Assembly (NCBI GenBank): GCA_964626635.1
Contig: CAZVFY010000003.1
Coordinates: forward strand, 7,449-71,448
Length of the DNA stretch: 64,000 bases
Reading direction: 5' to 3'
Source of the DNA: an uncultured Candidatus Saccharibacteria bacterium
GTDB lineage: Bacteria; Patescibacteriota; Minisyncoccia; Phycocordibacterales; UBA918
Below are positions 2,975-58,745 of this stretch, piece by piece. The notes under the pieces are model-generated. The model was not told the DNA's origin. It made no database searches and saw only the letters and a program-made list of their open reading frames with translations. Both the position numbers and the translations under genes were made by a program. Each line of letters opens with the position of its first letter. Positions within the stretch are counted from its first letter, which is position 1.

Positions 2975-4254
2975 ATTCGCTTAGCTGTTAGCTTGGTAAA
3001 TTTTTCCCATCTATCAATGATGATGCTGGCGAATACTGGATCTTGTTCTACTCCAAACCAGATACGGCGTAATTGCTCGCAGTCAATTAGGTCGCTACCA
3101 CTACCACCAAAGCCATAGAAGACGACGTGACCTGGAGCAGTGCATCGTCTGAGTGGCTTTTCGTTTAGACTGACTGGCTTTTGAGTTGGATGAAGATAGC
3201 TCTGCACATCGTCTCGCTTCACAATCCAGAGGTCGATCATATCTAAGAGCTCGTTGTGGAGCTGGTTGCCAGTAGTGACTTCTTGATTAAGGATTTCGTT
3301 TACGTTCTTGAGATTATTGTTTAGAAAGGCTTTACCTGTCGTGCCGTAGATTGCGGGCTCATGTACTCGGTTAAACGCAACCTTCGGCGTCATGTTCTGA
3401 TTATTCTTTACCCAATAGCAGATACGCCTGAAGAGTATCTTGCGTTGTTTATACAGTGCTTGAATTGCTCCCACGTACTTAGCGTCACACCAGTACAGAT
3501 AGTGAGCATCGGCATGAGCTATTACTTTAGCCGTACTGATACTTGCTTCAATAAACGCGTAGTACTCAGCATCACTCATCGAGTCTTTCTTGCTAGAGTA
3601 CTGACCCCCGTATTCCTTAGTGTTACTAATTCCTTTGTTATATGAAAGCCCAATGTTATAGGGCATATCTTGAAAGATGAAGTGGGCTTTTGTTTCTCCC
3701 ATAAACGTTGATACCAGTTCTTTATCAGTAGAGTCTCCTACGAGTAATCGGTGCTCTCCTAATTGCCACACTTCGCCAACCTTTGCTCGGGGTTCGTTCA
3801 TCTCTTCAATTGCTTTGTCGACATCGTATTCATCTTCGGCTAATTCAACATCATCGAAGAAGTTCTGTAGTTCGTCATCCTCGAATCCAACATCAAGTAG
3901 AACAGATAGGTCGAAATTCTTTAGGAGCTCGTCATCCCAAGAGCCAGTATTTTTGTTGAGTCTAAGATTCAGCTCACGCTCTTCTTCTAGTGATAGTTCC
4001 CGAGAAGGGATCATGCATTCGACTGTCTTGTATCCTAAGTCAGCGTAGATTTTTATTCTCTGCTCGCCCCCGATGATTACATCAGCCCGTGAATCAATAT
4101 TGAGAACTACTGGCACAACCGCACCGAATGTCTCAATCGATTTCTGCAGGTCTTGTTTTTGGTTACCACTAACTTTACGTGGGTTGTATCCGTTAGGTGT
4201 AAGGTCTTGCACCTTACGAGTGGTGGATGACCACGTTATCTTTTTTGTTTTCAT
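2971..4254 (-). CDS. ParB-like nuclease domain fused to a DNA methyltransferase
   Basis: N-terminal ParB/Srx-like block (VVPVVLNIDSRADVIIGGEQRI). Motif IV-like FQDMPYNIG and C-terminal motif I FYGFGGSGSDLIDCEQLRRIWFGVEQD. ATGA overlap with the downstream methyltransferase. Confidence 0.8.
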   Translation of the reverse strand: MKTKKITWSSTTRKVQDLTPNGYNPRKVSGNQKQDLQKSIETFGAVVPVVLNIDSRADVIIGGEQRIKIYADLGYKTVECMIPSRELSLEEERELNLRLNKNTGSWDDELLKNFDLSVLLDVGFEDDELQNFFDDVELAEDEYDVDKAIEEMNEPRAKVGEVWQLGEHRLLVGDSTDKELVSTFMGETKAHFIFQDMPYNIGLSYNKGISNTKEYGGQYSSKKDSMSDAEYYAFIEASISTAKVIAHADAHYLYWCDAKYVGAIQALYKQRKILFRRICYWVKNNQNMTPKVAFNRVHEPAIYGTTGKAFLNNNLKNVNEILNQEVTTGNQLHNELLDMIDLWIVKRDDVQSYLHPTQKPVSLNEKPLRRCTAPGHVVFYGFGGSGSDLIDCEQLRRIWFGVEQDPVFASIIIDRWEKFTKLTAKRI

Positions 4255-4407: not shown

Positions 4408-5553
4408 CTACTCCAATGAGTATAAATTGTTGAATCTGATACTCGTACGAGAAATATTGAAGATTGGCTGATTGTCATTTGGGTGCGAATTTATGATTTC
4501 ATGTTTCTTTAGTAGTTGCTCAAAACTTGTGTTGTTTCCAATAAGTTGAGTGCGATATTTTTCAGGATCATTTTCTACTCCGTCTGGTAGGAGTTTGATG
4601 AATTCATTTATATTTAATTCAATAACACCCTTTGGCATATACCGAATAACATTCTTAAACAGTTGTATGTACTGGTAGTCATCACCCTTGTTTGTTGTTT
4701 TGTATAAAAGTTTACTGTTTTGAAAATATATATGGTCCTGTTTAATTTCGAACAGCTTTGCTTGCTGTATTTCAGAGAGAGCAAAGACAATGCTGTTATG
4801 TAGACGACTTAAGTCTTGTGATATCCCTGCTTGGGGGTAGGCGTTTGTTGCACTAAGGGTGGCCTGTTTAATTTTATTTATATATGTGACACGAGCTATT
4901 GGTTTCTGCATCATTTCTACAAATTCACTCAATGTGATTTTAGTGCCATCATTAAAATTCAACATTTGATGATAAAGCTTCACTCCTCGCATTAATGCAC
5001 CAGATACAGACAAAGCATCCTGATCATGAAATGTTCTGTGAAGTCCTAAAAAGTCAGCTCGCTTTTCAAACGCAATTAGATTATCACTCCTCATATCTTT
5101 AGCAGGATTAAAAGTCTCGTTGAGAAATGACCTTGCTTCATCTTCATATCCTAATCTCTGCAATTCCTTCACTGCATCAAGTAATTCAAGTTCATTTGAG
5201 CCAAGCGGATGTTCATTTGAACCATGGTGGTTATGGGTCGCAAACGTCCGAAGACAATTTATCCGATCAGCAAGTAGAGCATTACTTTTTAAATCATTCT
5301 TTTCAACTATAGCTTCAAGCATTTCAACTGCCTTACCCGCATTCTGAACAATCTCATCGTATTTATTTTGAAGTACTTTGAGATCATTTTCTCTGGCTAC
5401 TACTGCTGGTACTAAATGTTCAATCAAAGTAAATCCATCAGTAACTAAAAAACTAAAATAGTCAGCAAAGGCAGTAAGGAAAGTGTTTGTGGAGTGACTG
5501 TTTTGCTGTGTGGATTCATACAGCTTTTGCTCCTTATCTACCATGCTTTTCAT
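4408..5553 (-). CDS. Hypothetical 381-aa protein with a possible HEPN-like Rx4-6H motif (RTFATH)
   Basis: Intact ORF upstream of the methyltransferase pair and co-oriented with it. No confident domain. Confidence 0.45.
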   Translation of the reverse strand: MKSMVDKEQKLYESTQQNSHSTNTFLTAFADYFSFLVTDGFTLIEHLVPAVVARENDLKVLQNKYDEIVQNAGKAVEMLEAIVEKNDLKSNALLADRINCLRTFATHNHHGSNEHPLGSNELELLDAVKELQRLGYEDEARSFLNETFNPAKDMRSDNLIAFEKRADFLGLHRTFHDQDALSVSGALMRGVKLYHQMLNFNDGTKITLSEFVEMMQKPIARVTYINKIKQATLSATNAYPQAGISQDLSRLHNSIVFALSEIQQAKLFEIKQDHIYFQNSKLLYKTTNKGDDYQYIQLFKNVIRYMPKGVIELNINEFIKLLPDGVENDPEKYRTQLIGNNTSFEQLLKKHEIINSHPNDNQPIFNISRTSIRFNNLYSLE

Positions 5554-5899: not shown

Positions 5900-6011
5900 A
5901 ATGTGTTGACAAAGTACATTTTTTTGTGTTGAATACAAGAACTCGCAGGCTTACGAGAAGCTGTGAGCGTTCCTAGGAAACTGAAACCCTTCAACCTCAT
6001 GAGGTGAAACA

Positions 6012-6500
6012 ATGCAAGCGAAAAGCAACCTTGCGGCCCTTTCGGTCCGCGCGAAACTCGCCAATGATCCGGCGCTCTTGGATCGGATGATGGCCTACGA
6101 CCACCCGGCGCTCCGTGAGCGCATGCAGGTCAAGTACGGTTGGAGTCCGGAGAAGACCGACGAGCTGTTCGGCGAGATGAAGAAGTTCATGTATCTCTGC
6201 GCGACCAACGACGGTGCCATGGCACCGCCCGAGGACATCGACGAGATCTGGCACAACTTCATCCTGTTCACCGGCGACTATGCCGACTACTGTCAGGACA
6301 CTGTCGGCATGTTCCTTCATCACCAGCCGCTCACGGTCGCCCAGCGCGCCCAAAGCGACGGCTCGATGATCACGAACACGCTGGACGCTGCCCGTCGTGC
6401 CTTCGGCGACGATGTGCCCGAGAAGTACTGGTCCTTCCAGAAGATCCCGGGCAGCTGTGGGCCGGGCACCTGTGGTGCTTCGACCAACTGCCAAGGCTGA
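6012..6500 (+). CDS. Hypothetical 162-aa protein in a ~62% GC island. It has a Cys/Gly-rich C-terminal tail (PGSCGPGTCGASTNCQG).
   Basis: AGGTGA RBS upstream. Composition differs sharply from the flanks. Conserved-looking EIWHNFILFTGDYADYC block. The overlapping antisense ORFs are GC-rich artefacts. Confidence 0.5.
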   Translation: MQAKSNLAALSVRAKLANDPALLDRMMAYDHPALRERMQVKYGWSPEKTDELFGEMKKFMYLCATNDGAMAPPEDIDEIWHNFILFTGDYADYCQDTVGMFLHHQPLTVAQRAQSDGSMITNTLDAARRAFGDDVPEKYWSFQKIPGSCGPGTCGASTNCQG

Positions 6501-6581
6501 CGATCGGCCGACGGCAATCATGAATCGCGCGTCATCCTTTCGAGGGTGGCGCGCATTTTTTTCACAACCAGAGGAATCATT

Positions 6582-7755: not shown

Positions 7756-7875
7756 GTCTTCTGACCTACATTTAGTTATATTTTGACCCCGACCCACTTA
7801 CCTAAATTGATCTAGCCCAAAGACCCTAAAATGCCCTTACAAGGCCTTGCCTGTGGGGTACTTAACCCACATAGC

Positions 7876-7939
7876 CCGCAACAAAACCAGCAAGCAATGA
7901 CTTGCTGATTTTTGGTTAGGGAGTGGGCTGGTCGAACTT
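7876..7939 (+). repeat. Family-A intergenic repeat, copy 1. Imperfect hairpin ..CAACAAAACCAGCAAG/CTTGCTGATTTTTGGTTAG.. followed by GGGAGTGGGCTGGTCGAACTT.
   Basis: The right arm and 3' tail are near-identical to copies at 9242..9304 and 11373..11435. Confidence 0.7.
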
Positions 7940-8020
7940 ACTATGATTTTTTATAAAAAAGTGTATGTTGTTTAATGGCTGCACATTACATTTCAACGTC
8001 CACATACAGGAGGAACTACC

Positions 8021-9136
8021 ATGGACGCAGTTCAAGCAACGAACGGAGCGACCACGGTCACTCCTACGAATACGCCGACGTGGTGGCATCAAGACGAAGC
8101 ATCAGGGCGCATTGACCCTGCTCTACTTGCTCCCGATCCCGAACAACCCCGAAAGCACATGGATGAGGCTGCACTTGAGGAACTTACCGAAAGTGTTGCC
8201 TCTGTTGGAGTGCGTGAACCGATCACCGTTACCCCGTGCGACAAAGCTCCCTGGTCAACTACTGATAACCAACATCAAGGATTGCCGTTCTTGGTGGTTA
8301 GCGGGCATCGGCGCACACGTGCAGCGATCAACGCACAGCTCGACTCCGTTCCCATACGTGTGAGGATCTATACCAGTGCTCAAGAGCACGAACTTGATCG
8401 TTCGCTCCTGAACAAAAATCGAGCTGATCTGACTGAACTCGAAGAGGGGTATGAAATCGTCCGACTCAAGGAGAAGGGTTTGACCCTCGGTGAGTTGGGT
8501 AAGGCGTTTGGATGTTCGGTTACACACCTGTATAACCGTATGCACCTGACCGCGCTTCACCCAAGTCTACAGGAGATGCTCGATCCTGCTCTACCACCCA
8601 AACGGCGTTTACCGACAACAGTTGGTGCAGCGCTGGGTAGCGTAAAGGTTCCGACAGTAGAAGAGCTGGAGGGATTGCACGCCTCATTTGGTGATATGAC
8701 CACTCAATCAGTTGAAGAAGTTGAGTATCTAGATGACACAGAACGTCGTCTCCACGTTCAACTTCTTTTCCACGATGTGATTAATGCCCGAAGTTTAAGT
8801 TCCGTCCGAGCAGTTGCTCTTGTGAAAGAGCACGCACTCAAGTTGAGTGCTTCGGGTACAGGTAGACACCCACGAGTCAAACGTCAAGAGCCAGCGCGGC
8901 GTCGAGAACTGTTTGATACATGGTTGTCTAGTCTTTCAGACTCGCCCATCATTGATTGGCGACCTGAAGAATGGCGTCGTGTCTTCGAGTACGTTTCTTA
9001 TGAGGACTTGGAAGAGATTATCGGCAATGTTCAAGACGCAACTGGTTTGCTTATTCAAATCAAAAAGCGTCTTGAGTCGATCAAATCAACCAAGCGACCG
9101 ACTTCTGAAGCGGTGAAGCGGGCGCTTGATAGTTAG
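8021..9136 (+). CDS. ParB/Srx N-terminal domain protein with a probable HTH
   Basis: AGGAGG RBS. ParB box-like VVSGHRRTRAA. GC content is higher than in neighbouring genes. Confidence 0.6.
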   Translation: MDAVQATNGATTVTPTNTPTWWHQDEASGRIDPALLAPDPEQPRKHMDEAALEELTESVASVGVREPITVTPCDKAPWSTTDNQHQGLPFLVVSGHRRTRAAINAQLDSVPIRVRIYTSAQEHELDRSLLNKNRADLTELEEGYEIVRLKEKGLTLGELGKAFGCSVTHLYNRMHLTALHPSLQEMLDPALPPKRRLPTTVGAALGSVKVPTVEELEGLHASFGDMTTQSVEEVEYLDDTERRLHVQLLFHDVINARSLSSVRAVALVKEHALKLSASGTGRHPRVKRQEPARRRELFDTWLSSLSDSPIIDWRPEEWRRVFEYVSYEDLEEIIGNVQDATGLLIQIKKRLESIKSTKRPTSEAVKRALDS

Positions 9137-9138
9137 TC

Positions 9139-9190
9139 GCCCCACCACAGAGAGCACCCCGCTTTCAGTGGTGGGGTGTTTTCTTTTATT
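9139..9190 (+). terminator. Intrinsic terminator (GCCCCACCAC ... GTGGTGGGGTG + T-tract)
   Basis: GC-rich inverted repeat followed by TTTTCTTTTATTT. Confidence 0.6.
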
Positions 9191-9244
9191 TAAATAACCA
9201 CTTCCTCCATCAAAGCGGTTCTAACGTCATCTAGGTACCTCCGC
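9186..9244 (+). repeat. Family-B conserved element, copy 1 (TTATTTAAATAACCACTTCCTCCATCAAAGCGGTTCTAACGTCATCTAGGTACCTCCGC)
   Basis: About 80% identical copies at 10161..10219 and 12114..12173, each immediately after a GC-rich terminator. Confidence 0.7.
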
Positions 9245-9304
9245 AACGAAAATCAGCAAGCTATAGCTTGCTGATTTTTGGTTAGGGAGTGAGATACTCG
9301 AACT
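9242..9304 (+). repeat. Family-A repeat, copy 2 (CAACGAAAATCAGCAAGC TATA GCTTGCTGATTTTTGGTTAGGGAGTGAGATACTCGAACTT)
   Basis: 18-20 bp imperfect hairpin with a bulge. Abuts B copy 1. Confidence 0.7.
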
Positions 9305-9386
9305 TTTCTTGTATATCGTGCTTTTATGTGGCATTGTTGCTGTCGAACGGACACCCTGTCCACCCAGTACATAAAGGATCATTCAC

Positions 9387-9818
9387 ATGCAACCAACCTT
9401 TTATCAGGTTCACGCACCACAGCACATGATGCACTGCTTTGCCATTCGTCGCGCTGTGTTCATTGAAGAACAAGGCGTCGACGAAGAGCTAGAGATCGAC
9501 GGCGAAGACCCAAACTGTGTCCACTTCCTCGGGGAGTTGAACGGACAACCGATCGCCACCCTGCGAATCAAAACTATCGGACCGACAGTGAAGATCCAAC
9601 GAGTGGCTGTTCTCAAAGACTACCGAGATGGATACGGCGTTGGTCGCGGCATCATGGAAGCGGCTCTGAACTGGGCACGCGATAGCGGCTACGAACAAGC
9701 TATCCTCGGCGCACAAGTCACAGTCATCGGCTTCTACGAGAAACTCGGCTTCGTTACCTACGGCGACCAGTATGAGGAAGCTTACATCATGCACCAAGAC
9801 ATGAGTTTGGAACTCTGA
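9387..9818 (+). CDS. ElaA-like GNAT acetyltransferase
   Basis: RRAVFIEEQGVDEELEIDGEDPNCVHFLG and LGAQVTVIGFYEKLGFVTYGDQYEEAYIMH closely mirror the E. coli ElaA motifs. Confidence 0.7.
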   Translation: MQPTFYQVHAPQHMMHCFAIRRAVFIEEQGVDEELEIDGEDPNCVHFLGELNGQPIATLRIKTIGPTVKIQRVAVLKDYRDGYGVGRGIMEAALNWARDSGYEQAILGAQVTVIGFYEKLGFVTYGDQYEEAYIMHQDMSLEL

Positions 9819-10129
9819 TGAGCAAAGCAACTATTCGTATTTCGCTCAAAACGATTGCGATGCGTTTCCCTGCTGGCAGTATCGAACGCGTGTATCTACA
9901 TGGTACGTGGCAGATGGAGCGTGGGCGCAACCCGTCTATGCTCTATGGAAATCACCACTCGGCACGTGTGGCGTATGCTGCTGCCAAAGCCATGCTCGGA
10001 TCATACTTTGATGAGATCAGGCGACAGCATTATGCTCGTCAAGATTTCTTCTGGAGTGATCAGATGATCGTCGATGTGACGAACCGAGTTCCCGTCCGTG
10101 AGCTACGACTCATGGACAAGTATCGCTAG
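9818..10129 (+). CDS. Hypothetical 103-aa protein, translationally coupled to the GNAT (ATGA overlap)
   Basis: Start overlaps the GNAT stop. Followed by a terminator. Confidence 0.4.
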   Translation: MSKATIRISLKTIAMRFPAGSIERVYLHGTWQMERGRNPSMLYGNHHSARVAYAAAKAMLGSYFDEIRRQHYARQDFFWSDQMIVDVTNRVPVRELRLMDKYR

Positions 10130-10160
10130 GCCGCCTTCCCTACGGGGTGGGCGGTTTTCA
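10129..10160 (+). terminator. Intrinsic terminator (GCCGCCTTCCC tac GGGGTGGGCGG + TTTTCATTT)
   Basis: GC-rich stem plus T-tract. Confidence 0.5.
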
Positions 10161-10219
10161 TTTATTTAATCACCACTTCCTCCAACAGCGCGGTTCTAAT
10201 GTTATCCAGTTCCCTCCGC
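10161..10219 (+). repeat. Family-B element, copy 2
   Basis: TTTATTTAATCACCACTTCCTCCAACAGCGCGGTTCTAATGTTATCCAGTTCCCTCCGC. Confidence 0.65.
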
Positions 10220-10261
10220 ATCATCGTGCTAGCACGAGACACCTCGTGATAACATGAATTT

Positions 10262-10654
10262 ATGAAATACACACTAGTCTTCCTAGGCATTCTGTGTTTG
10301 GTGGCAGTAGCTTCATTTGTTAATGGTGGTGTATACAATCTACATGCTGGAAATGTTGCTTATCCAGAAGGATTTAAACCTGTTTACAAAATATGTAATG
10401 GATTGACGATTGTTGTAGGAGATCCTATTGCACACCACTACGACTTACCCGTTAATGGTATTTGTTTTGGATCGATAGTCGATAGACCAGAACTCACATC
10501 CGAACAGAAGAAAAAGATTAATGGTCCCCAGGTTTTTTACATGATATCTTCAAACGAGTTGGATGACCATGATTATAGATGTAAAACAGATCCCCTCTAT
10601 GATCCTGCAGATCCGTGTGAGTATAGTTTTGAAGGTGTTCAAGTCGATATTTAG
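10262..10654 (+). CDS. Small secreted Cys-containing protein (130 aa, N-terminal signal peptide)
   Basis: MKYTLVFLGILCLVAVASFVNG signal. AT-rich. Confidence 0.45.
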   Translation: MKYTLVFLGILCLVAVASFVNGGVYNLHAGNVAYPEGFKPVYKICNGLTIVVGDPIAHHYDLPVNGICFGSIVDRPELTSEQKKKINGPQVFYMISSNELDDHDYRCKTDPLYDPADPCEYSFEGVQVDI

Positions 10655-10894
10655 CGCATTTGAGATAATCAACATAAAAGTTTTTTGTTGTATCTTACAG
10701 AAAATATAGAGCTCGAGACAGTATCGAATTGATTTTAAAAATAGTACTGAATCAGACAAGCCAAGCTTGGTATCACACAGTTCTAACTCGAGACAGCCCG
10801 CCAAGTCCAGCTAGCACGACATATCACGTGCAAAGCAATTGGATAATAAAAAGAAAAGCTTTAGATTACAGAGAATGTGTACGAAACCTGTTTA

Positions 10895-11245
10895 TTAGAA
10901 GTATCCCCCGGCTATAAATATCAAGGAGGTTACTACAATTAAAATGCTTACTATCAGTGTTAACTTTTCGATGATTGACCAGTTATTTTTTCGCAAAGTA
11001 GAAATTATAAAAGCCAGAGATAGAAAAAACGAAAAACCGAATGTGAGAATAAGATATGGCATGGCAAAAAACCAAGCAATACTCTCAATCTGAAGCACCC
11101 AAGCGAAGTAATACCAAGTACCAAAAGGAACTCCCAGTTGTAGTAGCAGAATCAACCAGGCGGGTAATTTTGATTTCACAATACATATTATACACATTTG
11201 CTTACGAATTTTGGTTTGCGAGACAGCGTTAAGCAGTGAATTCAA
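10895..11245 (-). CDS. Small integral membrane protein (116 aa, 3-4 TM)
   Basis: Hydrophobic segments throughout. Confidence 0.4.
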   Translation of the reverse strand: MNSLLNAVSQTKIRKQMCIICIVKSKLPAWLILLLQLGVPFGTWYYFAWVLQIESIAWFFAMPYLILTFGFSFFLSLAFIISTLRKNNWSIIEKLTLIVSILIVVTSLIFIAGGYF

Positions 11246-11372
11246 AAAACATTAATAAATGTTTTTTGTTCACTTGAAAACTTGCGCTCGAGACGCTACG
11301 ATAGACTACTTGGGAATTAAGAGATTCGGTCAAGCAGGGCTTGGCTGCCCACGGTTCTAGCCCGAGACGGCC

Positions 11373-11435
11373 AGCAACGAAAATCAGCAAGTAATAGCTT
11401 GCTGATTTTGATTAAGGAGTGGGACGCTCGAACTT
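11373..11435 (+). repeat. Family-A repeat, copy 3 (CAACGAAAATCAGCAAG TAATA GCTTGCTGATTTTGATTAAGGAGTGGGACGCTCGAACTT)
   Basis: Same architecture as copies 1 and 2. Confidence 0.7.
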
Positions 11436-11516
11436 CGCCTTGCACCAACAGTATATTTCCTGCATAGTGCTTTTGGTACCTGTACCACTTTGAAACCTAA
11501 GTAGGAGACTGTCACA

Positions 11517-12080
11517 ATGGAGACGGCAAAAGCTGTCGGCGACGGTAAGCTGACTGATGACGAACTTGGAACAATGACTCGGCGTCTGATGGAAATAGTT
11601 CGCCGAATCAACGAGGGGTCCCTTGATAAGCGAAAAACGCTTACAGCGTTCCAGATGCTGATTGAGGGCAAGGCTGGACAGATGACTGAGCCGTGTCCGC
11701 GAAAGCACCGCTCAGAAAGTCGTCCATTCAAGATGCTCCCGATAGCTGAGCGTCGCAAATCAACCGCTCCTTTGAGAATGCGTACAGAGCAGTATCTCAA
11801 GCGACTGTACTACCACTACAAGTTGTTTCTCTTCACAGATCAATACTGGGGAGAAAAACGTCTGAATGCAGAAGATATTTTTGCCTTGATGTGGGAAGCA
11901 GAAAATATTCCTGACCAGTGCATAAACCACGGTTGGACACCGGTGCAAAGTATTCTCGGTGATTTTTATGCTAGCGAGCATGATCGAGCGATCGTCGCAT
12001 CGACGCTGCAGTGGCTCGGGACAAACTCCGGCAAGGAGTACCTTCGTAGAATGATTGCGACCGCTGACATCGACGTGTGA
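11517..12080 (+). CDS. Hypothetical 187-aa protein
   Basis: GGAG RBS. Flanked by A copy 3 and terminator + B copy 3. Confidence 0.45.
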   Translation: METAKAVGDGKLTDDELGTMTRRLMEIVRRINEGSLDKRKTLTAFQMLIEGKAGQMTEPCPRKHRSESRPFKMLPIAERRKSTAPLRMRTEQYLKRLYYHYKLFLFTDQYWGEKRLNAEDIFALMWEAENIPDQCINHGWTPVQSILGDFYASEHDRAIVASTLQWLGTNSGKEYLRRMIATADIDV

Positions 12081-12084
12081 CACC

Positions 12085-12120
12085 GGGGCGCCCGCTTAGT
12101 GTGGGCGCCCCTTCTTATTT
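12085..12120 (+). terminator. Intrinsic terminator (GGGGCGCCC ... GGGCGCCCC + TTCTTATTT)
   Basis: Perfect 9-bp GC stem. Confidence 0.6.
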
Positions 12121-12173
12121 AAATGCTTACTTCCTCTACCAAAGCGGTTCTAACGTCGTCTAGGTACCTCCGC
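12114..12173 (+). repeat. Family-B element, copy 3
   Basis: TTATTTAAATGCTTACTTCCTCTACCAAAGCGGTTCTAACGTCGTCTAGGTACCTCCGC. Confidence 0.65.
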
Positions 12174-12437
12174 GAGCTAGAAAACAAACATGCAAGTGTT
12201 TGTTTTTGTTTGCGAGCGCGAGGGAGAGGGATGAGAAAAAAGCGAAGTCTATCGCCCAGAGCGGAGCGAGGACGGTACGAGCGTCGGGGTCGCGTCGCAC
12301 AGTATTTGAGGTAACAAAAATACTGCTGCAAAGGCGGCCGAATCCCTCTCCCTCCGCAAAACGATATTCGTCCGCGTAAACGGACTTCTGTTTTGCAGAC
12401 TGCACGATCCAGGTTCACCATTTGCTATTATATAGCC

Positions 12438-12746
12438 ATGAATTCATTCACCGTCCTTACACCCGAAGAGATTACAACTCGACTGGCCGCCCATCCCGAA
12501 TGGTCAATACAAGAACAGAGACTCGTGGCGATATTTACCTTTAAGGATTTCAAGCAAGCCTTTGCGTTTATCAGCATGGTGGCGCTGTACGCCGAGCAGC
12601 ACGATCACCACCCTGAATGGAGTAACACATACAACAAAGTATCGTTTCAACTTTCGACCCATGACGCGGGGAACAAAATTACTACCCTAGATACCGACGC
12701 AGCGCTATACATCAGCCAAGCCGCTGCGCGGTTGAAACGGCAGTGA
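12438..12746 (+). CDS. Pterin-4a-carbinolamine dehydratase (PCD/DCoH)
   Basis: EQHDHHPEWSNTYNKV signature ([ED]xHHP). 102 aa from ATG 12438. Confidence 0.75.
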   Translation: MNSFTVLTPEEITTRLAAHPEWSIQEQRLVAIFTFKDFKQAFAFISMVALYAEQHDHHPEWSNTYNKVSFQLSTHDAGNKITTLDTDAALYISQAAARLKRQ

Positions 12747-39410: not shown

Positions 39411-40337
39411 CTATGATCCATCTACACACGTCGCATAGCCGCTTTGTGGATCGTACACTAGTTCAATAGCGGAATTTTCATTTGCTTGCGCGTACGCACT
39501 ACATATGCCCTCTAACTGAGATTCAAACCCATCAGGATAGCCATTAGCTGCTGACGGTACACCATCAGGCAATGGAGTTTTCACTGCAAAAATTATCCCT
39601 TCTTCAGTAACAGCGAGATCTTCTTGAATTTGGACTAATACGTTTTCTTCAACTTCATAAGGGTTAATGTATATAGGGTATCTATTTAATACGGAATTGA
39701 TGACATTAGAATTTACGTTTCCATCACCATTAATTAAGTTTTCTTCTACTATATCTAATGCAGCATTATCCCTTTCAAAACAGCGTATCTCATTACTGCC
39801 GGTAGAAGGTCTTTGAATTATATTACCGTTTAGTGCACAGTCTCTTGAGTAGGCTAATTGATCTTGGTTTGAAGCTGTTCCAGGTATGTATGAATAACCG
39901 TCTTCCTGAATAACAATAGCTTCAAAAGCTCTGACATTCTCCCTCACCACCGGTCCCAAATTCCTAGTCTGTTCAATATTTAACTCAAACCGTGTTAAAT
40001 CAGGATTGATCACCGTCAGGATCAAAACGGCGGACAGCACCAGCACCAGACCAAACACTGCCCCTTTGATGTCTTTCTTAGCATCTCCCTTGTCGGTGGC
40101 GATGTCGGTGAACATATATTTAACACCGGCAATGATGATTTTGATCACCGCCAGTAGCGCCGCCAGGCTGATAGCCAGACCATACACGGCATTGATGTAG
40201 GTATTGAAATCCGCATTCCCTTCTAGTCCCGGGATCCCGACCAGCGGCGTAAAGGTCTGTGCCCAGGCTAGGCCTGGTAGTAGCCAGACAGCGAGGACTG
40301 CGAGCGCAAAGGTTAGATGGTGGTGTCGAATTGCCAT
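39411..40337 (-). CDS. Membrane/secreted protein with an N-terminal VirB2/TrbC-pilin-like segment (signal peptide plus two hydrophobic helices) and a C-terminal extension
   Basis: MAIRHHHLTFALAVLAVWLLPGLAWA, then LAISLAALLAVIKIIIAGVKYMF ... AVFGLVLVLSAVLILTVI. Last gene of the T4SS-like operon. Confidence 0.4.
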   Translation of the reverse strand: MAIRHHHLTFALAVLAVWLLPGLAWAQTFTPLVGIPGLEGNADFNTYINAVYGLAISLAALLAVIKIIIAGVKYMFTDIATDKGDAKKDIKGAVFGLVLVLSAVLILTVINPDLTRFELNIEQTRNLGPVVRENVRAFEAIVIQEDGYSYIPGTASNQDQLAYSRDCALNGNIIQRPSTGSNEIRCFERDNAALDIVEENLINGDGNVNSNVINSVLNRYPIYINPYEVEENVLVQIQEDLAVTEEGIIFAVKTPLPDGVPSAANGYPDGFESQLEGICSAYAQANENSAIELVYDPQSGYATCVDGS

Positions 40338-45996: not shown

Positions 45997-48525
45997 TTAG
46001 AGATAGAAGTCTTCCTTACCTTTGTTTGAACCGAGATATGTGATTGTGGACAAAGATACCCCACCAGCAACTCCAAGAGACAGTAGTTTTCTAGCTAACT
46101 CTCGGCGTTGTTGTTCATTTATATCTGACTTACCATCATTAGCCTTTTTTGCCAGAGCTTTAAGAACGTCGGCTGTAAGGTATGGGATGCTGTTACTGTG
46201 TATGGTATTGGTATTGGTGTCGACAAACGCTTCGTATGGTAATGAAGCAATGTCAACTGCCTTACGAGCTTTGCTTTTAGGAGTTGCTCGCCTGGCACCA
46301 TTAATCCATTTTGTTTCAGTGCCAGTAAACATCGCTTTTCGAGTTGGTGCTTGAGCAGCTCGCCTCTTCTGTTCGTCTCCACGCGCTTTTTGGAAAGTGT
46401 CTTTTTGCCGCTGTGTAAACGCATCACTTTTCTTAAAGTCCTCAACTTGAGAATCTGTAAAGCCATGCGCAAAATCTTTAGCGAACTCGTCACCGAGTAT
46501 TTCGATCTGTTGCTTCGTCAGTTTTGCAAACTCATCATTAATGACACGGCCGTTTTCGTCGAGTACGCTACTTTTAATAATATCTTCGTATTCTTTTCCA
46601 AGAGCTTTTTTATCAGCCTCATTGACGTTATCACTTTCAAGCAATTTAGAAACCGTTGGAGCTTTAAGGTAGCGTAGTACTTTCAGTCGATCGTCGTTAG
46701 ACATCTCTTCCAGCTCTTTTAATGAAATGCGATTCGCTGCTTTTTCAGCCGCATCAAGCTTCTGTCGATCGTCTGCAGACATGTTTTCTTGTACCAAGCT
46801 AATATCTTTCGCCGCTTCAATATCACTGTTTCCTGTAGTTTTACGAGCAATCGTAGCAAAATTTTTGTCCTGCTCCGCTACACGCTTACGCTTTTGTTCA
46901 ATGGTTTCAGAGCCTGCAACTGAAGCACTCTCCATTTTTTTGTATGCTGGTGTAAACGTCTTATCCATACCCCGAGCAACTTTTGCGCGCCAACCACCCT
47001 TCTGTGCTTGGAGTGCCATTCTGCGCTGGAAATTTTTTCTGCCTTGTTCAGCCTCTGCACCAAGGGCTTGCGCACCGTATCCAGCCGTGTTTCTAGCCGC
47101 GAATTTACCAGTTCGCATGGCTGCATTACTGGCCATACGTCTCCCTCCTCGCGCCAACCGCTGTCCCGTGCGCATCGCCAGTTTTGATCCATCAGCACTC
47201 AGGTACCCAGCCACCATGACCGACATAATGAGGAACACGGCCGACAGCGCGAATGGTCCGATTCCGGCTGCAATATCCCCCGCAGTGTTGGCTAAACCAG
47301 TTGTGTTGGTGGTAGCACCAGGCATGGCGTCGCCAATAGTTAAAGAATTCTGACCAACAGTAGCCACGATCACCGCCGACGAGAGGTAAATCATGATCAT
47401 GTAGGCGGGTGCAAAGAACGCGCGCCCCAGGAAATTCCGCCAGTATTTTTCCATTGTGCCCCTAAAATTGGGCAGTATCCAGCCAATGAACATCAGCGGT
47501 GAAAACACCATAAACACGCATAGCGCTGCGTATCGGATCAGCAACATGATGGCCCCAGCCATAAACGCAAATATGGCTATGACATACACAATGGCGTTTC
47601 CAAAAATGTAGCCCCACGGTAATACACCGCCCCTGGTCAGGTTACCGTCGGCCGCGAGCGATGTAGTGAGCCTCATGTTATTAAAGAAGGTCTGACCCAC
47701 CAGAATTTCTCCTTCGCGATCCGGAGTAATTGTCGCCTGCGCTGCCCCGGCATTAGGAAAGCCGGCTTGACCAATCTCGGTTGCCAGTAAGTTAGTAAAA
47801 TCAACGATGGCCTTGGAGATAAACAAACTAAAGTTGATTAATAGTGCCGCCATTACAAGGTATGCGAGCGCTTTCTGCGCCCCACCTTCATCGCGCCGTA
47901 AGATCATCTTGAAACCAATGTAGATAATAGCGAAAATAAAGAGAATATTGAACAAGTCGCGCACCAATGCCCATAGCGTATCAATGGCGGAACCAACCCC
48001 ACTGCTGTCAACACTGCTGCCAAATCCAATAACAAAGTCCTTGATGACATAATCTAAAAAGCCAGCTGCCCACCCCGCGAACCAACCGAGGAAACTCATA
48101 ACAATGAAATAAATTTTACCCTCGAGGCTGTCGTAATCAGACCAGCTGCGTACTTCTACCTGGGGGTTCCGGGCATCGTTCCCTGTACCGGCAGCTCTAG
48201 TGACACCGGCCGGAGCACCGGGAGGTGTGACCACGCCCGGGCTCACACTGTTTCCGGTCGGCGTGGTAGGGGTAGTGGGGACGGGACTAAGGTTGTTAAC
48301 CGCCGCATCAAAACTCGGCAGTCCGTTCGATCCAGTCGGAATAGGAGGTGGTGTAACCGCCGCATCAAAACTCGGCAGTCCGTTCGAGCCAGTTGGGAGA
48401 GAGGGTGTATCATTTGTCTGGGCTTTTGCCGCAGCGGGCGGTATCAGGAAAATACTGATGATGGCTAGGCACCAAACCCAAAATCGCAGCGCGGGTGTAA
48501 GAGTAAGATATATAGAGTGTTTCAT
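45997..48525 (-). CDS. TrbL/VirB6-like polytopic membrane protein with an N-terminal repeat region and a long charged C-terminal tail
   Basis: 842 aa. Central cluster of at least 6 TM helices. N-terminal tandem TGSNGLPSFDAAV repeats. C-terminal Lys/Glu-rich domain. Confidence 0.55.
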   Translation of the reverse strand: MKHSIYLTLTPALRFWVWCLAIISIFLIPPAAAKAQTNDTPSLPTGSNGLPSFDAAVTPPPIPTGSNGLPSFDAAVNNLSPVPTTPTTPTGNSVSPGVVTPPGAPAGVTRAAGTGNDARNPQVEVRSWSDYDSLEGKIYFIVMSFLGWFAGWAAGFLDYVIKDFVIGFGSSVDSSGVGSAIDTLWALVRDLFNILFIFAIIYIGFKMILRRDEGGAQKALAYLVMAALLINFSLFISKAIVDFTNLLATEIGQAGFPNAGAAQATITPDREGEILVGQTFFNNMRLTTSLAADGNLTRGGVLPWGYIFGNAIVYVIAIFAFMAGAIMLLIRYAALCVFMVFSPLMFIGWILPNFRGTMEKYWRNFLGRAFFAPAYMIMIYLSSAVIVATVGQNSLTIGDAMPGATTNTTGLANTAGDIAAGIGPFALSAVFLIMSVMVAGYLSADGSKLAMRTGQRLARGGRRMASNAAMRTGKFAARNTAGYGAQALGAEAEQGRKNFQRRMALQAQKGGWRAKVARGMDKTFTPAYKKMESASVAGSETIEQKRKRVAEQDKNFATIARKTTGNSDIEAAKDISLVQENMSADDRQKLDAAEKAANRISLKELEEMSNDDRLKVLRYLKAPTVSKLLESDNVNEADKKALGKEYEDIIKSSVLDENGRVINDEFAKLTKQQIEILGDEFAKDFAHGFTDSQVEDFKKSDAFTQRQKDTFQKARGDEQKRRAAQAPTRKAMFTGTETKWINGARRATPKSKARKAVDIASLPYEAFVDTNTNTIHSNSIPYLTADVLKALAKKANDGKSDINEQQRRELARKLLSLGVAGGVSLSTITYLGSNKGKEDFYL
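48298..48411. repeat. Two tandem copies of a 57-bp unit inside the VirB6-like gene (encodes PTGSNGLPSFDAAV)
   Basis: AACCGCCGCATCAAAACTCGGCAGTCCGTTCGA(T/G)CC occurs at 48298 and 48355. Confidence 0.7.
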
Positions 48526-54285: not shown

Positions 54286-54330
54286 TCCCCCGGCGCGCAT
54301 GCGTGCCGGGGGGTTCTTTCTTTTTAAACG
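54286..54330 (+). terminator. Intrinsic terminator CCCCCGGCGCGCATGCGTGCCGGGGGG + T-rich tail. The same stem is reused at 58652..58690.
   Basis: Near-identical 24-nt hairpin at two loci. Confidence 0.7.
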
Positions 54331-58616: not shown

Positions 58617-58651
58617 ACAGTTCCTCAGTCACCCACCCCGGTGACCTCGCC

Positions 58652-58745
58652 CCCGGCGCGCATGCGTGCCGGGGGTTTTTTTAACCGCATCTATAATTCA
58701 TCAACAAAAGAAAAAACCCGGCGCATGCGCCGGGTTTTGTTGCTG
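58652..58745. terminator. Two tandem hairpins between convergent genes: CCCCCGGCGCGCATGCGTGCCGGGGG and AAAAAACCCGGCGCATGCGCCGGGTTTT
   Basis: First stem is identical to the 54292 terminator. Second is a related palindrome, bidirectional for the downstream minus-strand GNAT. Confidence 0.65.

Follow-up and report, generated by a model that had tools for sequence, protein, structure and literature searches.

Conserved repeats mark the joints of small gene cassettes, probably stacked behind a tRNA-Ser gene, in an uncultured Candidatus Saccharibacteria bacterium

The DNA analyzed here is a 64-kb stretch of contig CAZVFY010000003.1 from an uncultured Candidatus Saccharibacteria bacterium. The full stretch is called the window, all coordinates are window positions, and contigs or loci compared with it carry L numbers. 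The array under study, at 7756-12437, is made up of five or six tiny cassettes without an integrase of their own, arranged head to tail. Three families of intergenic repeats (A, B and C) mark the joints between these small, self-contained gene cassettes. In the explanation that we favor and consider probable, positions 7756-12356 are the distal part of an additive island of ~19.7 kb, seeded at a tRNA-Ser(tga) gene, in which such integrase-less cassettes are stacked. The array is a miniaturized variant of the tandem integrative islands anchored at tRNA or transfer-messenger RNA (tmRNA) genes (together, tDNA); it is neither an integron nor a scatter of repetitive extragenic palindromic (REP)-like repeats.

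Repeat finding identified A and B as the two strongest direct repeats of the whole window. Each family has three copies, 60-110 nucleotides (nt) long and 76-90% alike, all at 7.8-12.2 kb and none elsewhere in the 64 kb. A reading made from the sequence alone had described three modules with A in front and B behind, and its three A and three B copies were recovered where it had placed them, the conserved B cores matching its coordinates. Degenerate core patterns (up to three mismatches) matched solely these known copies in the 64 kb, with 0-0.4 matches expected by chance. The A, B and C copies share one orientation and are contained in 4.7 kb; the scatter beside core genes that had been considered as an alternative was looked for and is absent from the other ~59 kb of the window and from the ~10-kb upstream flank. 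The copies are delimited as follows:

7883-7939, 9249-9305 and 11380-11436, plus strand: A copies from repeat finding
7873-7939, 9242-9305 and 11373-11436, plus strand: the same A copies with their leader bases
9174-9245, 10149-10220 and 12103-12174, plus strand: B copies from repeat finding

The spacing of these elements is regular. From the end of A to the start codon there are 81-82 nt (ATGs at 8021, 9387 and 11517), at the lower end of the 80-100 bp estimated before. A GC-rich, terminator-like hairpin is found immediately 5' of every B (9149-9184, 10139-10151 and 12085-12111), in agreement with the terminator previously proposed for each module end. The composite junction reported between the first B and the second A was recovered as well: B1 abuts and overlaps A2 at CCTCCGC/AAC (CCTCCGC/AACGAAAA; the slash marks the joint). 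The modules have a GC content from 0.36 to 0.61, which bears out their heterogeneous composition. From left to right, the array reads:

7850-7875, plus strand: junction X, a B-like end of the preceding element (GTGGGGTACTTAACCCACATAGCCCGC), directly 5' of A1
7873-7939, plus strand: A1, a hairpin with A-tract and T-tract, then GGTTAGGGAGTGGG..TCGAACTT
8021-9136, plus strand: cargo of cassette 1, a ParB-like protein of 371 amino acids (aa) with ParB_N and helix-turn-helix (HTH) domains, by family match
9149-9184, plus strand: intrinsic-terminator-like hairpin of cassette 1
9186-9245, plus strand: B1, an attachment site (att)-like block, TTATTTAAAT..ACTTCCTCC..CAAAGCGGTTCTAAC..ACCTCCGC; its reverse strand reads RRYLDDVRTALMEEVVI followed by a stop
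9242-9337, plus strand: A2, hairpin and right part of A, with promoter-like TTGTAT (9309-9314), a 17-nt spacer and CATTGT (9332-9337)
9387-10129, plus strand: cargo of cassette 2, a GNAT acetyltransferase (9387-9818) and an overlapping 103-aa open reading frame (ORF; 9818-10129)
10139-10220, plus strand: terminator-like hairpin (10139-10151) and B2 (10161-10220); reverse strand RRELDNIRTALLEEVVIK followed by a stop
10224-10257, plus strand: a hairpin that is not A (CGTGCTAGCACG, CACGAG..CTCGTG), right after B2, opening cassette 3
10262-10654, plus strand: cargo of cassette 3, a 130-aa protein with a signal-like N-terminus, GC 0.38
10673-10806, plus strand: C1, of a third 3'-element family, with a T-rich hairpin, GCTCGAGAC, CCAAGCTTGG, CAGTTCTAAC, TCGAGAC and CCCGCC
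10807-11253, strand unassigned: cassette 4, low GC (0.36), coding uncertain; the candidates are a 116-aa minus-strand ORF (10895-11245) or short plus-strand ORFs
11254-11375, plus strand: C2, the second C copy, ending in CGGTTCTAGCCCGAGACGGCCAGC immediately 5' of A3
11373-11468, plus strand: A3, hairpin and right part of A, with promoter-like TTGCAC (11440-11445), a 17-nt spacer and CATAGT (11463-11468)
11517-12080, plus strand: cargo of cassette 5, a 187-aa protein whose family is spread across Parcubacteria
12085-12174, plus strand: terminator-like hairpin (12085-12111) and B3 (12114-12174); reverse strand RRYLDDVRTALVEEVSI followed by a stop
12175-12337, plus strand: last segment, apparently non-coding, with an A/T-tract hairpin (~12183-12206) and an inverted partial copy of the tRNA-Ser 3' end (12221-12235)
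12338-12356, plus strand: displaced tRNA-Ser 3' fragment CGAATCCCTCTCCCTCCGC (19/19 identity), the distal att (attR) of the composite island

The cargo consists of typical accessory genes of mixed GC content. The ParB-like and GNAT identities suggested earlier hold in family matches (ParB_N plus HTH, and GNAT); the 103-, 130- and 187-aa products have no family match, and homologues of the 187-aa protein bear Kaiserbacteria and Pacebacteria labels, from which the source bacterium was taken to be of Parcubacteria type.

The island to which these cassettes belong extends to the left of the window. An intact tRNA-Ser(tga) gene lies ~7.4 kb left of position 1, followed, in window orientation, by AbiEii, a 440-aa large serine recombinase (Resolvase, Recombinase and Zn_ribbon_recom domains), a 392-aa protein, an 843-aa methylase and Mrr, up to the window start. 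At the other end, positions 12338-12356 match the tRNA-Ser 3' end from the T-loop onward in 19 of 19 bases. Because the intact gene stands at the left and this displaced fragment at the right, the ~19.7 kb from tRNA-Ser to 12356 is a composite tDNA-seeded island, with the A/B cassettes as its distal part. Intact tDNA and displaced 3' fragment at opposite ends, with an integrase in between, is also the arrangement by which Islander and TIGER define an island. The bases left of the displaced fragment, CAAAGGCGGC, resemble CAAAGCGG of B. All junctions end in CCGC-type bases, and the faithful copy of the tRNA-Ser 3' end is found at the last junction only. A recombinase within ~20 kb had been named as something to look for; the large serine recombinase is located ~12-14 kb upstream, outside the window, and may act in cassette movement. 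DNA methylases, a ParB-methylase fusion, a second GNAT and a SAM (S-adenosylmethionine) methyltransferase flank the array on its left, N6_N4 methylases and ParB_N proteins being present in the window's island. Core genes begin on the right at 12438 with a pterin dehydratase, then S20, RuvA and a Mur ligase.

Some further observations concern the island itself. The sequence GCGAGGGAGAGGGAT (12221-12235, compared with 12341-12356) repeats 13 nt of the tRNA-Ser 3' end in inverted orientation. It precedes the displaced fragment by ~105 nt, and the two could form a long hairpin or be left over from an inversion. Overlapping long ORFs on opposite strands, 5997-6521 (minus) and 6012-6500 (plus), occupy the part of the island with the highest GC content (61%); of the two, the gene caller chose the plus-strand, UCP032817-like one. 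A divergent 381-aa ORF (4408-5553) was considered as a hidden integrase and dropped: it has no family match, and its single-sequence AlphaFold model was unusable (predicted local distance difference test, pLDDT, of 41).

The cassettes share a common 5' element, A. Its order is a hairpin with a 13-bp stem, preceded by an A-tract and followed by a T-tract, then GGTTAGGGAGTGGGAyGCTCGAACTT, then a promoter-like part. In five of six aligned A copies the latter reads CTTG(C/T)(A/G)(C/T), 17 nt, CAT(A/T)GT, and it precedes three unrelated genes. Since this sequence is kept in front of unrelated genes, the 3' part of A is probably the cassette's own promoter. A consensus promoter scanner does not flag it. 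The hairpin of A1 also scores as terminator-like (7888-7907). Hairpins are kept at the position of A in related loci (L015, L018, window 12183-12206 and the tmRNA-linked loci described below); they retain the layout of A-tract, stem and T-tract, with a different stem sequence. As the stems vary between related loci, a terminator or insulator would fit the A hairpin better than a sequence-specific operator.

This variation also bears on another function that A might have. The palindromes, with their 13-bp arms, could be operator or centromere-like sites (of the parS or KorB OB type) for the ParB-like HTH protein of cassette 1, co-regulating the three units, and such a role would be compatible with a cassette array. 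The ParB_N and HTH gene does lie right behind A1, and three near-identical palindromes stand just upstream of promoter-like sequences. However, same-position hairpins differ in stem sequence between related loci, and L016, a 2.5-kb contig, has A copies with no parB in view, so that we regard this role as rather improbable.

At the 3' side, B comes after the terminator of each gene, and its final bases, CCTCCGC, are those with which tRNA-Ser ends. The core of B, CAAAGnGGTTCTAAC, resembles a tRNA T-loop. With tRNA-Ser, B shares exactly this CCTCCGC and the T-loop-like GGTTCTAAC; the stretch between them differs and is 5 nt longer. Two structural identities of B were tried on the sequence and rejected: a tRNA-like fold, as the T-stem is non-complementary, and a dif site, as the two arms have no common inner palindrome. 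The third family, C, includes the short motif already noticed by the sequence-only reading, CTCGAGAC, which is exact at 10712, 10787 and 11287 and has one mismatch at 11361. This motif is part of a longer element of ~130 nt, with C1 (10673-10806) and C2 (11254-11375) aligning locally with a score of 39, compared with a maximum of 29 in 1000 shuffles. C and B have the GTTCTAAC core in common, an 8-mer GTTCTA(A/G)C that occurs four times on the plus strand of the window, always at 9.2-12.2 kb.

Both strands of the B-A composite fold well as single-stranded DNA (z about -4.4), and around the inner hairpin the sequence CCACTTCCT of B pairs with AGGGAGTGG of A. In the two composites of L016, one pair is changed on both sides (C-G to T-A), three are changed to G-T and one is broken; this comparison rests on three composites, too few to separate a folded-DNA site from plain inverted repeats.

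Comparison with other contigs indicates that the module is the unit of re-use. A gene for the 187-aa protein, with 94% identity at the protein level, is also found in L016, a contig of another sequencing run. Its neighbors there are different, an unrelated gene upstream and a 281-aa gene on the other side, and B-A composites flank it on both sides. Between ~11375, where A starts, and 12173, where B ends with CCTCCGC, 80-100% of the bases per 40 nt agree with the window; beyond these points, identity drops to background level. Therefore A, gene, terminator and B travel as one, and the joint lies directly after CCGC. Homologues at 80-89% identity (L015, L018) still have a diverged GGTTCTAAC core and the hairpin. 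Those at 57-73% identity stand in unrelated contexts with no trace of A or B; at that distance, therefore, the elements are not carried with the gene. Two observations concern the 187-aa gene itself. At 883-885 of L016, TGA is found where the window has TGG, which could be a pseudogene, a sequencing error or recoding. A palindrome, GGTACnTGTACC, lies at 11476-11487, between the promoter-like -10 sequence and the Shine-Dalgarno sequence; it is present at the same position in L016, L018 and L015. Because it is conserved in homologues down to 80% identity, it appears to be gene-specific and could be an operator or a hairpin of the 5' untranslated region.

Strain variation is also seen at the tRNA-Ser-proximal end of the island, where L073 has an extra element compared with L075. 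In L073 (19000-21476, compared with L075 13600-16162), a 231-aa protein, an FtsK_gamma-domain protein, a 139-aa and a 205-aa protein are found instead of tRNA-Ser directly. The joint between two elements in this strain variant, GGGGTACTTAACCCTAGTGGCCCGCCA/ATAGAAC, is of the same type as junction X. Assemblies from other samples (the end of L002, the start of L006, the ends of L004 and L007) break inside B1 or A3 or a few dozen bases from them, and two contigs of sample 3300040798 abut in the middle of B1; such breaks would be expected if the assembly graph branched at cassette joints, but also from repeats alone. A search for the same locus across strains gave no relative of the adjacent pterin dehydratase above 63% identity outside the source population.

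The junction family of B is widespread in bacteria of the Candidate Phyla Radiation (CPR). The first searches, with exact A and B patterns, gave no B and one A match in viral contigs (L008, which an HMM, i.e., hidden Markov model, search showed to match A's palindromic stem only) and no match in metagenome and genome contigs, in collections without the source contig. A 22-nt pattern limited to the most conserved bases of B (AYCAAAGNGGTTCTAACKTNNT) matched 13 genome and 39 metagenome loci, mostly of Patescibacteria (CPR), and no viral contig; around ten of these matches are due to chance, inside genes of other phyla. The true matches are blocks of 85-115 nt and fall into two groups, with 19 distinct copies in the short one and ten in the long one. 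The block is located downstream of tmRNA, in the same orientation, in all nine loci whose fetched DNA includes the tmRNA gene (eight distinct sequences, as L041 and L059 are identical). The core CAAAGnGGTTCTAAC is also found downstream of, and co-oriented with, tRNA-Trp or tRNA-Gly in CPR contigs. Rfam holds no family for A, B or the tmRNA-linked blocks, at the gathering score or at E up to 10.

The tmRNA-linked array of L039 shows how the block relates to its anchor. Its order is SmpB and tmRNA, then NUDIX, deaminase and a block, DoxX (reverse) and a block, NUDIX and a degenerate block, and DUF1801. The sequence 3' of tmRNA (...CTCCACCA) closely resembles that 3' of the second block (...TTCCACCA) base for base from the first nucleotide. 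L034 and L039 have one block and its upstream gene in common and diverge directly after CTTCCACA. Therefore the last bases of the block stand in for the tDNA 3' end, and the cassette starts right after them. The boundaries can be placed to the base: they follow CCACCA or CCACA in L039 and L034, and CCTCCGC in the window. The correspondence between anchor and block (a slash marks the boundary) holds for four anchor genes:

tmRNA: gene 3' end ...CATCTCCAC(CA), i.e., ...TCTCCAC(CA); block end ...TCTTCCAC(CA)
tRNA-Trp (L037, ~640 nt upstream, co-oriented): gene ...GCCCCTGCCA/AG (...CCCTGCCA/AG); block ...ATGCCCTGCCA/AG (...CCCTGCCA/AG)
tRNA-Gly (L031): gene ...CCCGCACCA/AATC (...CGCACCA/AATC); block ...CTGCGCCA/AATC (...GCGCCA/AATC)
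tRNA-Ser (window genome): gene ...CCCTCCGCCA (...CCTCCGCCA); B end ...ACCTCCGC (...CCTCCGC)

The core is thus constant over all anchors, and the 3' tail follows the 3' end of the anchor gene. Such co-variation is what would be expected if recombination took place in those last bases. In L055 (reverse complement, 7917-7990 and 10128-10200), copies of the tmRNA 3' flank (TTCGCTCTTCGCTAC..GCAGGGCGGGCAC) stand behind two blocks and look like displaced native flanks within the array.

The sequence-only reading had suspected a site-specific, modular gene-capture region, and this idea is upheld by the re-use of a module in L016, the displaced tRNA-Ser fragment and the CPR-wide family of tDNA-anchored junctions. 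The tRNA link, the third 3'-element family, the promoter-like sequence in A and the coding-like opposite strand of B (described below) are points beyond it. No description of such cassette arrays was found in the searched literature.

These data also allow another origin to be weighed. A and B could be passive, lineage-specific repeats, of REP or miniature inverted-repeat transposable element (MITE) type, or shared promoter and terminator modules, shuffled by ordinary homologous recombination or gene conversion after DNA uptake. A does combine a terminator-like hairpin with promoter-like sequence, B follows terminators, no recombinase adjoins them, and repeats of 60-110 nt that are 76-90% alike could serve as portable homology. 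REP elements, bacterial interspersed mosaic elements (BIMEs) and MITEs are likewise short, hairpin-containing intergenic repeats beside terminators. Those, however, are spread genome-wide in both orientations, whereas A and B are confined to one polar, co-oriented, tDNA-tied array and have no copy in ~59 kb of core genome. Moreover, the family sits at tDNA 3' ends in the same orientation in nine of nine tmRNA loci, the 3' tail of the block changes with the anchoring tDNA, boundaries are base-sharp, and a displaced tRNA fragment closes the array. Passive repeats are therefore an unlikely explanation.

An integron would be another alternative. Here, A (alone or with B) would be an attC site recombined by IntI, in a classical integron or a cluster of attC sites lacking an integron integrase (CALIN). 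Like integron cassettes, the units are small, mostly same-strand accessory genes of mixed composition (GNAT, NUDIX, DoxX, DUF1801-type); each closes with a structured site that is partly palindromic, none brings its own recombinase, and a fixed primary site lies at one end of the array. GCAAC ... GTTAGGG around the A hairpin resembles R''/R' boxes, and the B-A composite folds as a long imperfect palindrome. But these boxes are not conserved, with AAC varying (AAT and AGC in L016) and A3 having ATTAAGG in place of GTTAGGG, and the module boundary lies left of the hairpin rather than at G/TT. There is no IntI: no tyrosine recombinase or Phage_integrase match was obtained among the 40 window ORFs scanned, and the one recombinase seen nearby is the large serine recombinase outside the window. 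Finally, the cassettes have their own promoter-like sequences and terminators, and a tRNA or tmRNA gene provides the primary site with its 3' end, in place of attI. An integron origin is extremely unlikely on this evidence.

The block has a further property, which lies on the strand opposite to the tDNA. In the short group, the reverse frame is most variable at the third codon position, then at the first, then at the second; of the six frames it has the highest amino-acid identity (0.74), with exactly one stop, which is terminal. Copies of the long group have GGAG, an ATG and 32 codons (e.g., MNDVRTSLIEINNTQYLQAMMEFVKTLNAKGV). The micro-ORF consensus is M-x-[DQ]-VRT[SA]L-[IVM]-E..., 23-32 aa long, and its sites are:

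L055, 2560-2660, with copies at 3870, 5110, 6085, 7685 and 8660
L039, 5017 and 5563
Window, reverse strand, 9186-9243, 10161-10218 and 12114-12172

Among 1.84 billion proteins, a word-indexed search and an exhaustive profile search found 38 small ORFs, many of exactly 32 aa, and no larger family. The idea that the block peptide is the remnant or tail of a larger protein, taken from Dehalococcoides dsiB, which reads across attL, was dropped, since only small ORFs were found. The window copies have CTA or CTG at the position of the start codon and are 14-15 codons long; as the start codon is replaced, they appear to have decayed. The T-loop-like core is itself the stretch that codes for VRT, and at several positions where B1, B2 and B3 differ, the encoded peptide is unchanged or altered conservatively. 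Some block copies (P0049-P0054) have one or two tandem inserts of ~20 codons (DLVF..YKNGN.LV) between QV and (R/K)TSL, i.e., within the GGTTCTAAC core, which hints that the core itself may be a breakpoint.

B might then be kept chiefly for this micro-protein (M-x-[DQ]-VRT[SA]L...), for instance as a stabilizing or regulatory peptide, and not as a recombination site. The coding-type substitution pattern with its single terminal stop, the Shine-Dalgarno sequence and ATG of the 32-aa forms, the 38 small proteins without a larger family, and the peptide-conservative differences between B1, B2 and B3 speak for it. On the other hand, the window copies lack a start codon and are cut to 14-15 codons, the most conserved part, VRT, coincides with the T-loop-like DNA core, and the 3' tail follows the tDNA, which is a DNA-level property. 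We consider this possibility highly doubtful.

In the cassette explanation that we favor, one cassette is composed of A (a terminator-like hairpin and promoter-like TTGyry, 17 nt, CATwGT), one or two cargo genes, an intrinsic terminator and an att-like B or C. A recombinase supplied from elsewhere would join the B end of a circularized cassette to the tDNA 3' end or to a resident B. An action from elsewhere is suggested because the cassettes contain no recombinase and none is found repeatedly near 24 related loci. As a candidate, the island offers its 440-aa large serine recombinase; an unlinked integrase would be the alternative. The incoming cassette would land directly after ...CCGC(CA), pushing older cassettes distally. 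Its leading hairpin would stop transcription from the tDNA or from the upstream cassette, while its own promoter would drive the cargo. Of this scheme, we observe the repeats, the limits of the modules, the mimicry of tDNA, the displaced tDNA fragment, one module re-used between different neighbors and the family's anchoring at tDNAs; we infer that a circular intermediate exists, where exactly the crossover falls and which recombinase acts.

Several findings weigh against this explanation. No recombinase lies in or beside the cassettes (40 window ORFs scanned), and no integrase family recurs across the 24 related loci. The serine recombinase of the island is ~12-14 kb from the cassettes, with AbiEii between it and the tRNA gene, and nothing ties it to B. 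Neither circular junctions nor empty sites were observed; the cassette order is identical in every contig of the source population, and L016, of 2.5 kb, is the sole independent contig with a re-used window module. Apart from the shared bases, the right half of B is no copy of tRNA-Ser. The likeness of junction X to B is weak and not significant under the B HMM; neither C1 nor C2 is significant under it, their backing being their pairing and the shared 8-mer. Lastly, the coding-like constraint on the reverse strand of B has no place in a cassette model.

Among described systems, the tandem ssrA islands of Dehalococcoides come close. Their units follow one another head to tail behind a tDNA; between them stand repeats of the tDNA 3' end, each closely preceded by an additional conserved motif (McMurdie et al. 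2011, PMC3146451). About half of them have no integration module, the integrase is a large serine recombinase, and genes for ParB-domain proteins and DNA methylases are present (PMC3146451). The window's island is similar to them in its large serine recombinase, ParB_N proteins and N6_N4 methylases. In contrast to islands of ~12 kb, the cassettes here are transcription units of 0.6-1.4 kb that share a common 5' element (A). A faithful 20-bp tDNA repeat is replaced by a 60-115-nt block with a constant non-tDNA core and a tDNA match of ~7-9 nt. Insertion would occur at the very 3' end rather than in the T-loop, the recombinase is not beside attL, none of the five or six cassettes encodes one, and none recurs near the tmRNA-linked arrays.

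The tycheposon islands of Prochlorococcus grow from the proximal tDNA, with tRNA-Ser(tga) and tmRNA among their targets; new elements push older ones distally, and remnants and partial tRNAs accumulate (Hackl et al., bioRxiv 10.1101/2020.12.28.424599). The polarity of the window fits this scheme, with the intact tRNA-Ser proximal and the displaced fragment distal. Tycheposons bring along a tyrosine or serine recombinase as well as replication modules; the cassettes here have neither, and they share conserved 5' (A) and 3' (B) elements. A further parallel is provided by the staphylococcal cassette chromosome (SCC), mobilized by Ccr large serine recombinases. As in the window, SCC elements are inserted at the 3' end of a conserved single-copy gene, in tandem between short site repeats, and some (ccr-less pseudo-SCC) have no recombinase and would be moved by one supplied from elsewhere. 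The SCC target, however, is protein-coding (rlmH/orfX), the elements are many kb long, and they have no conserved 5' element combining a hairpin and a promoter.

A broader proposition, which we put forward tentatively and hold somewhat less probable than its opposite, is that CPR/Patescibacteria share one capture system. Integrase-less cassettes of one or two genes would stack behind tRNA and tmRNA genes via a common att block (core CAAAGnGGTTCTAAC, a micro-ORF of 23-32 codons and a 7-9-nt anchor-matched tail), one recombinase serving all of them from elsewhere in the genome. If true, such a system would be equivalent to the integron in function but would use other machinery. In CPR bacteria, whose genomes are tiny, the ways in which accessory genes are gained and swapped are poorly established; much of their flexibility would then run via short polar arrays of ready-made transcription units behind tmRNA and tRNA genes. 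The core CAAAGnGGTTCTAAC with a tDNA-matching tail provides a searchable signature for the variable gene pool in CPR metagenomes and a defined substrate for finding the recombinase. It also raises a new question, namely why a conserved micro-ORF lies within an att site.

Other features were observed elsewhere in the window. A TrbC/VirB2-type pilin gene of a type IV secretion system is located at 39411-40337, in a same-strand run of large ORFs (39.4-50 kb) that may encode a conjugation or DNA-uptake-type apparatus. The 842-aa ORF at 45997-48525 contains two tandem 54-nt copies (48297-48407), 57 nt from start to start and 89% identical. Further to the right, a 33-nt GC-rich, palindromic, terminator-like sequence (CCCCCGGCGCGCATGCGTGCCGGGGG and a T-run) is present at 54287-54319 and, 4.4 kb away and 94% identical, at 58650-58682.

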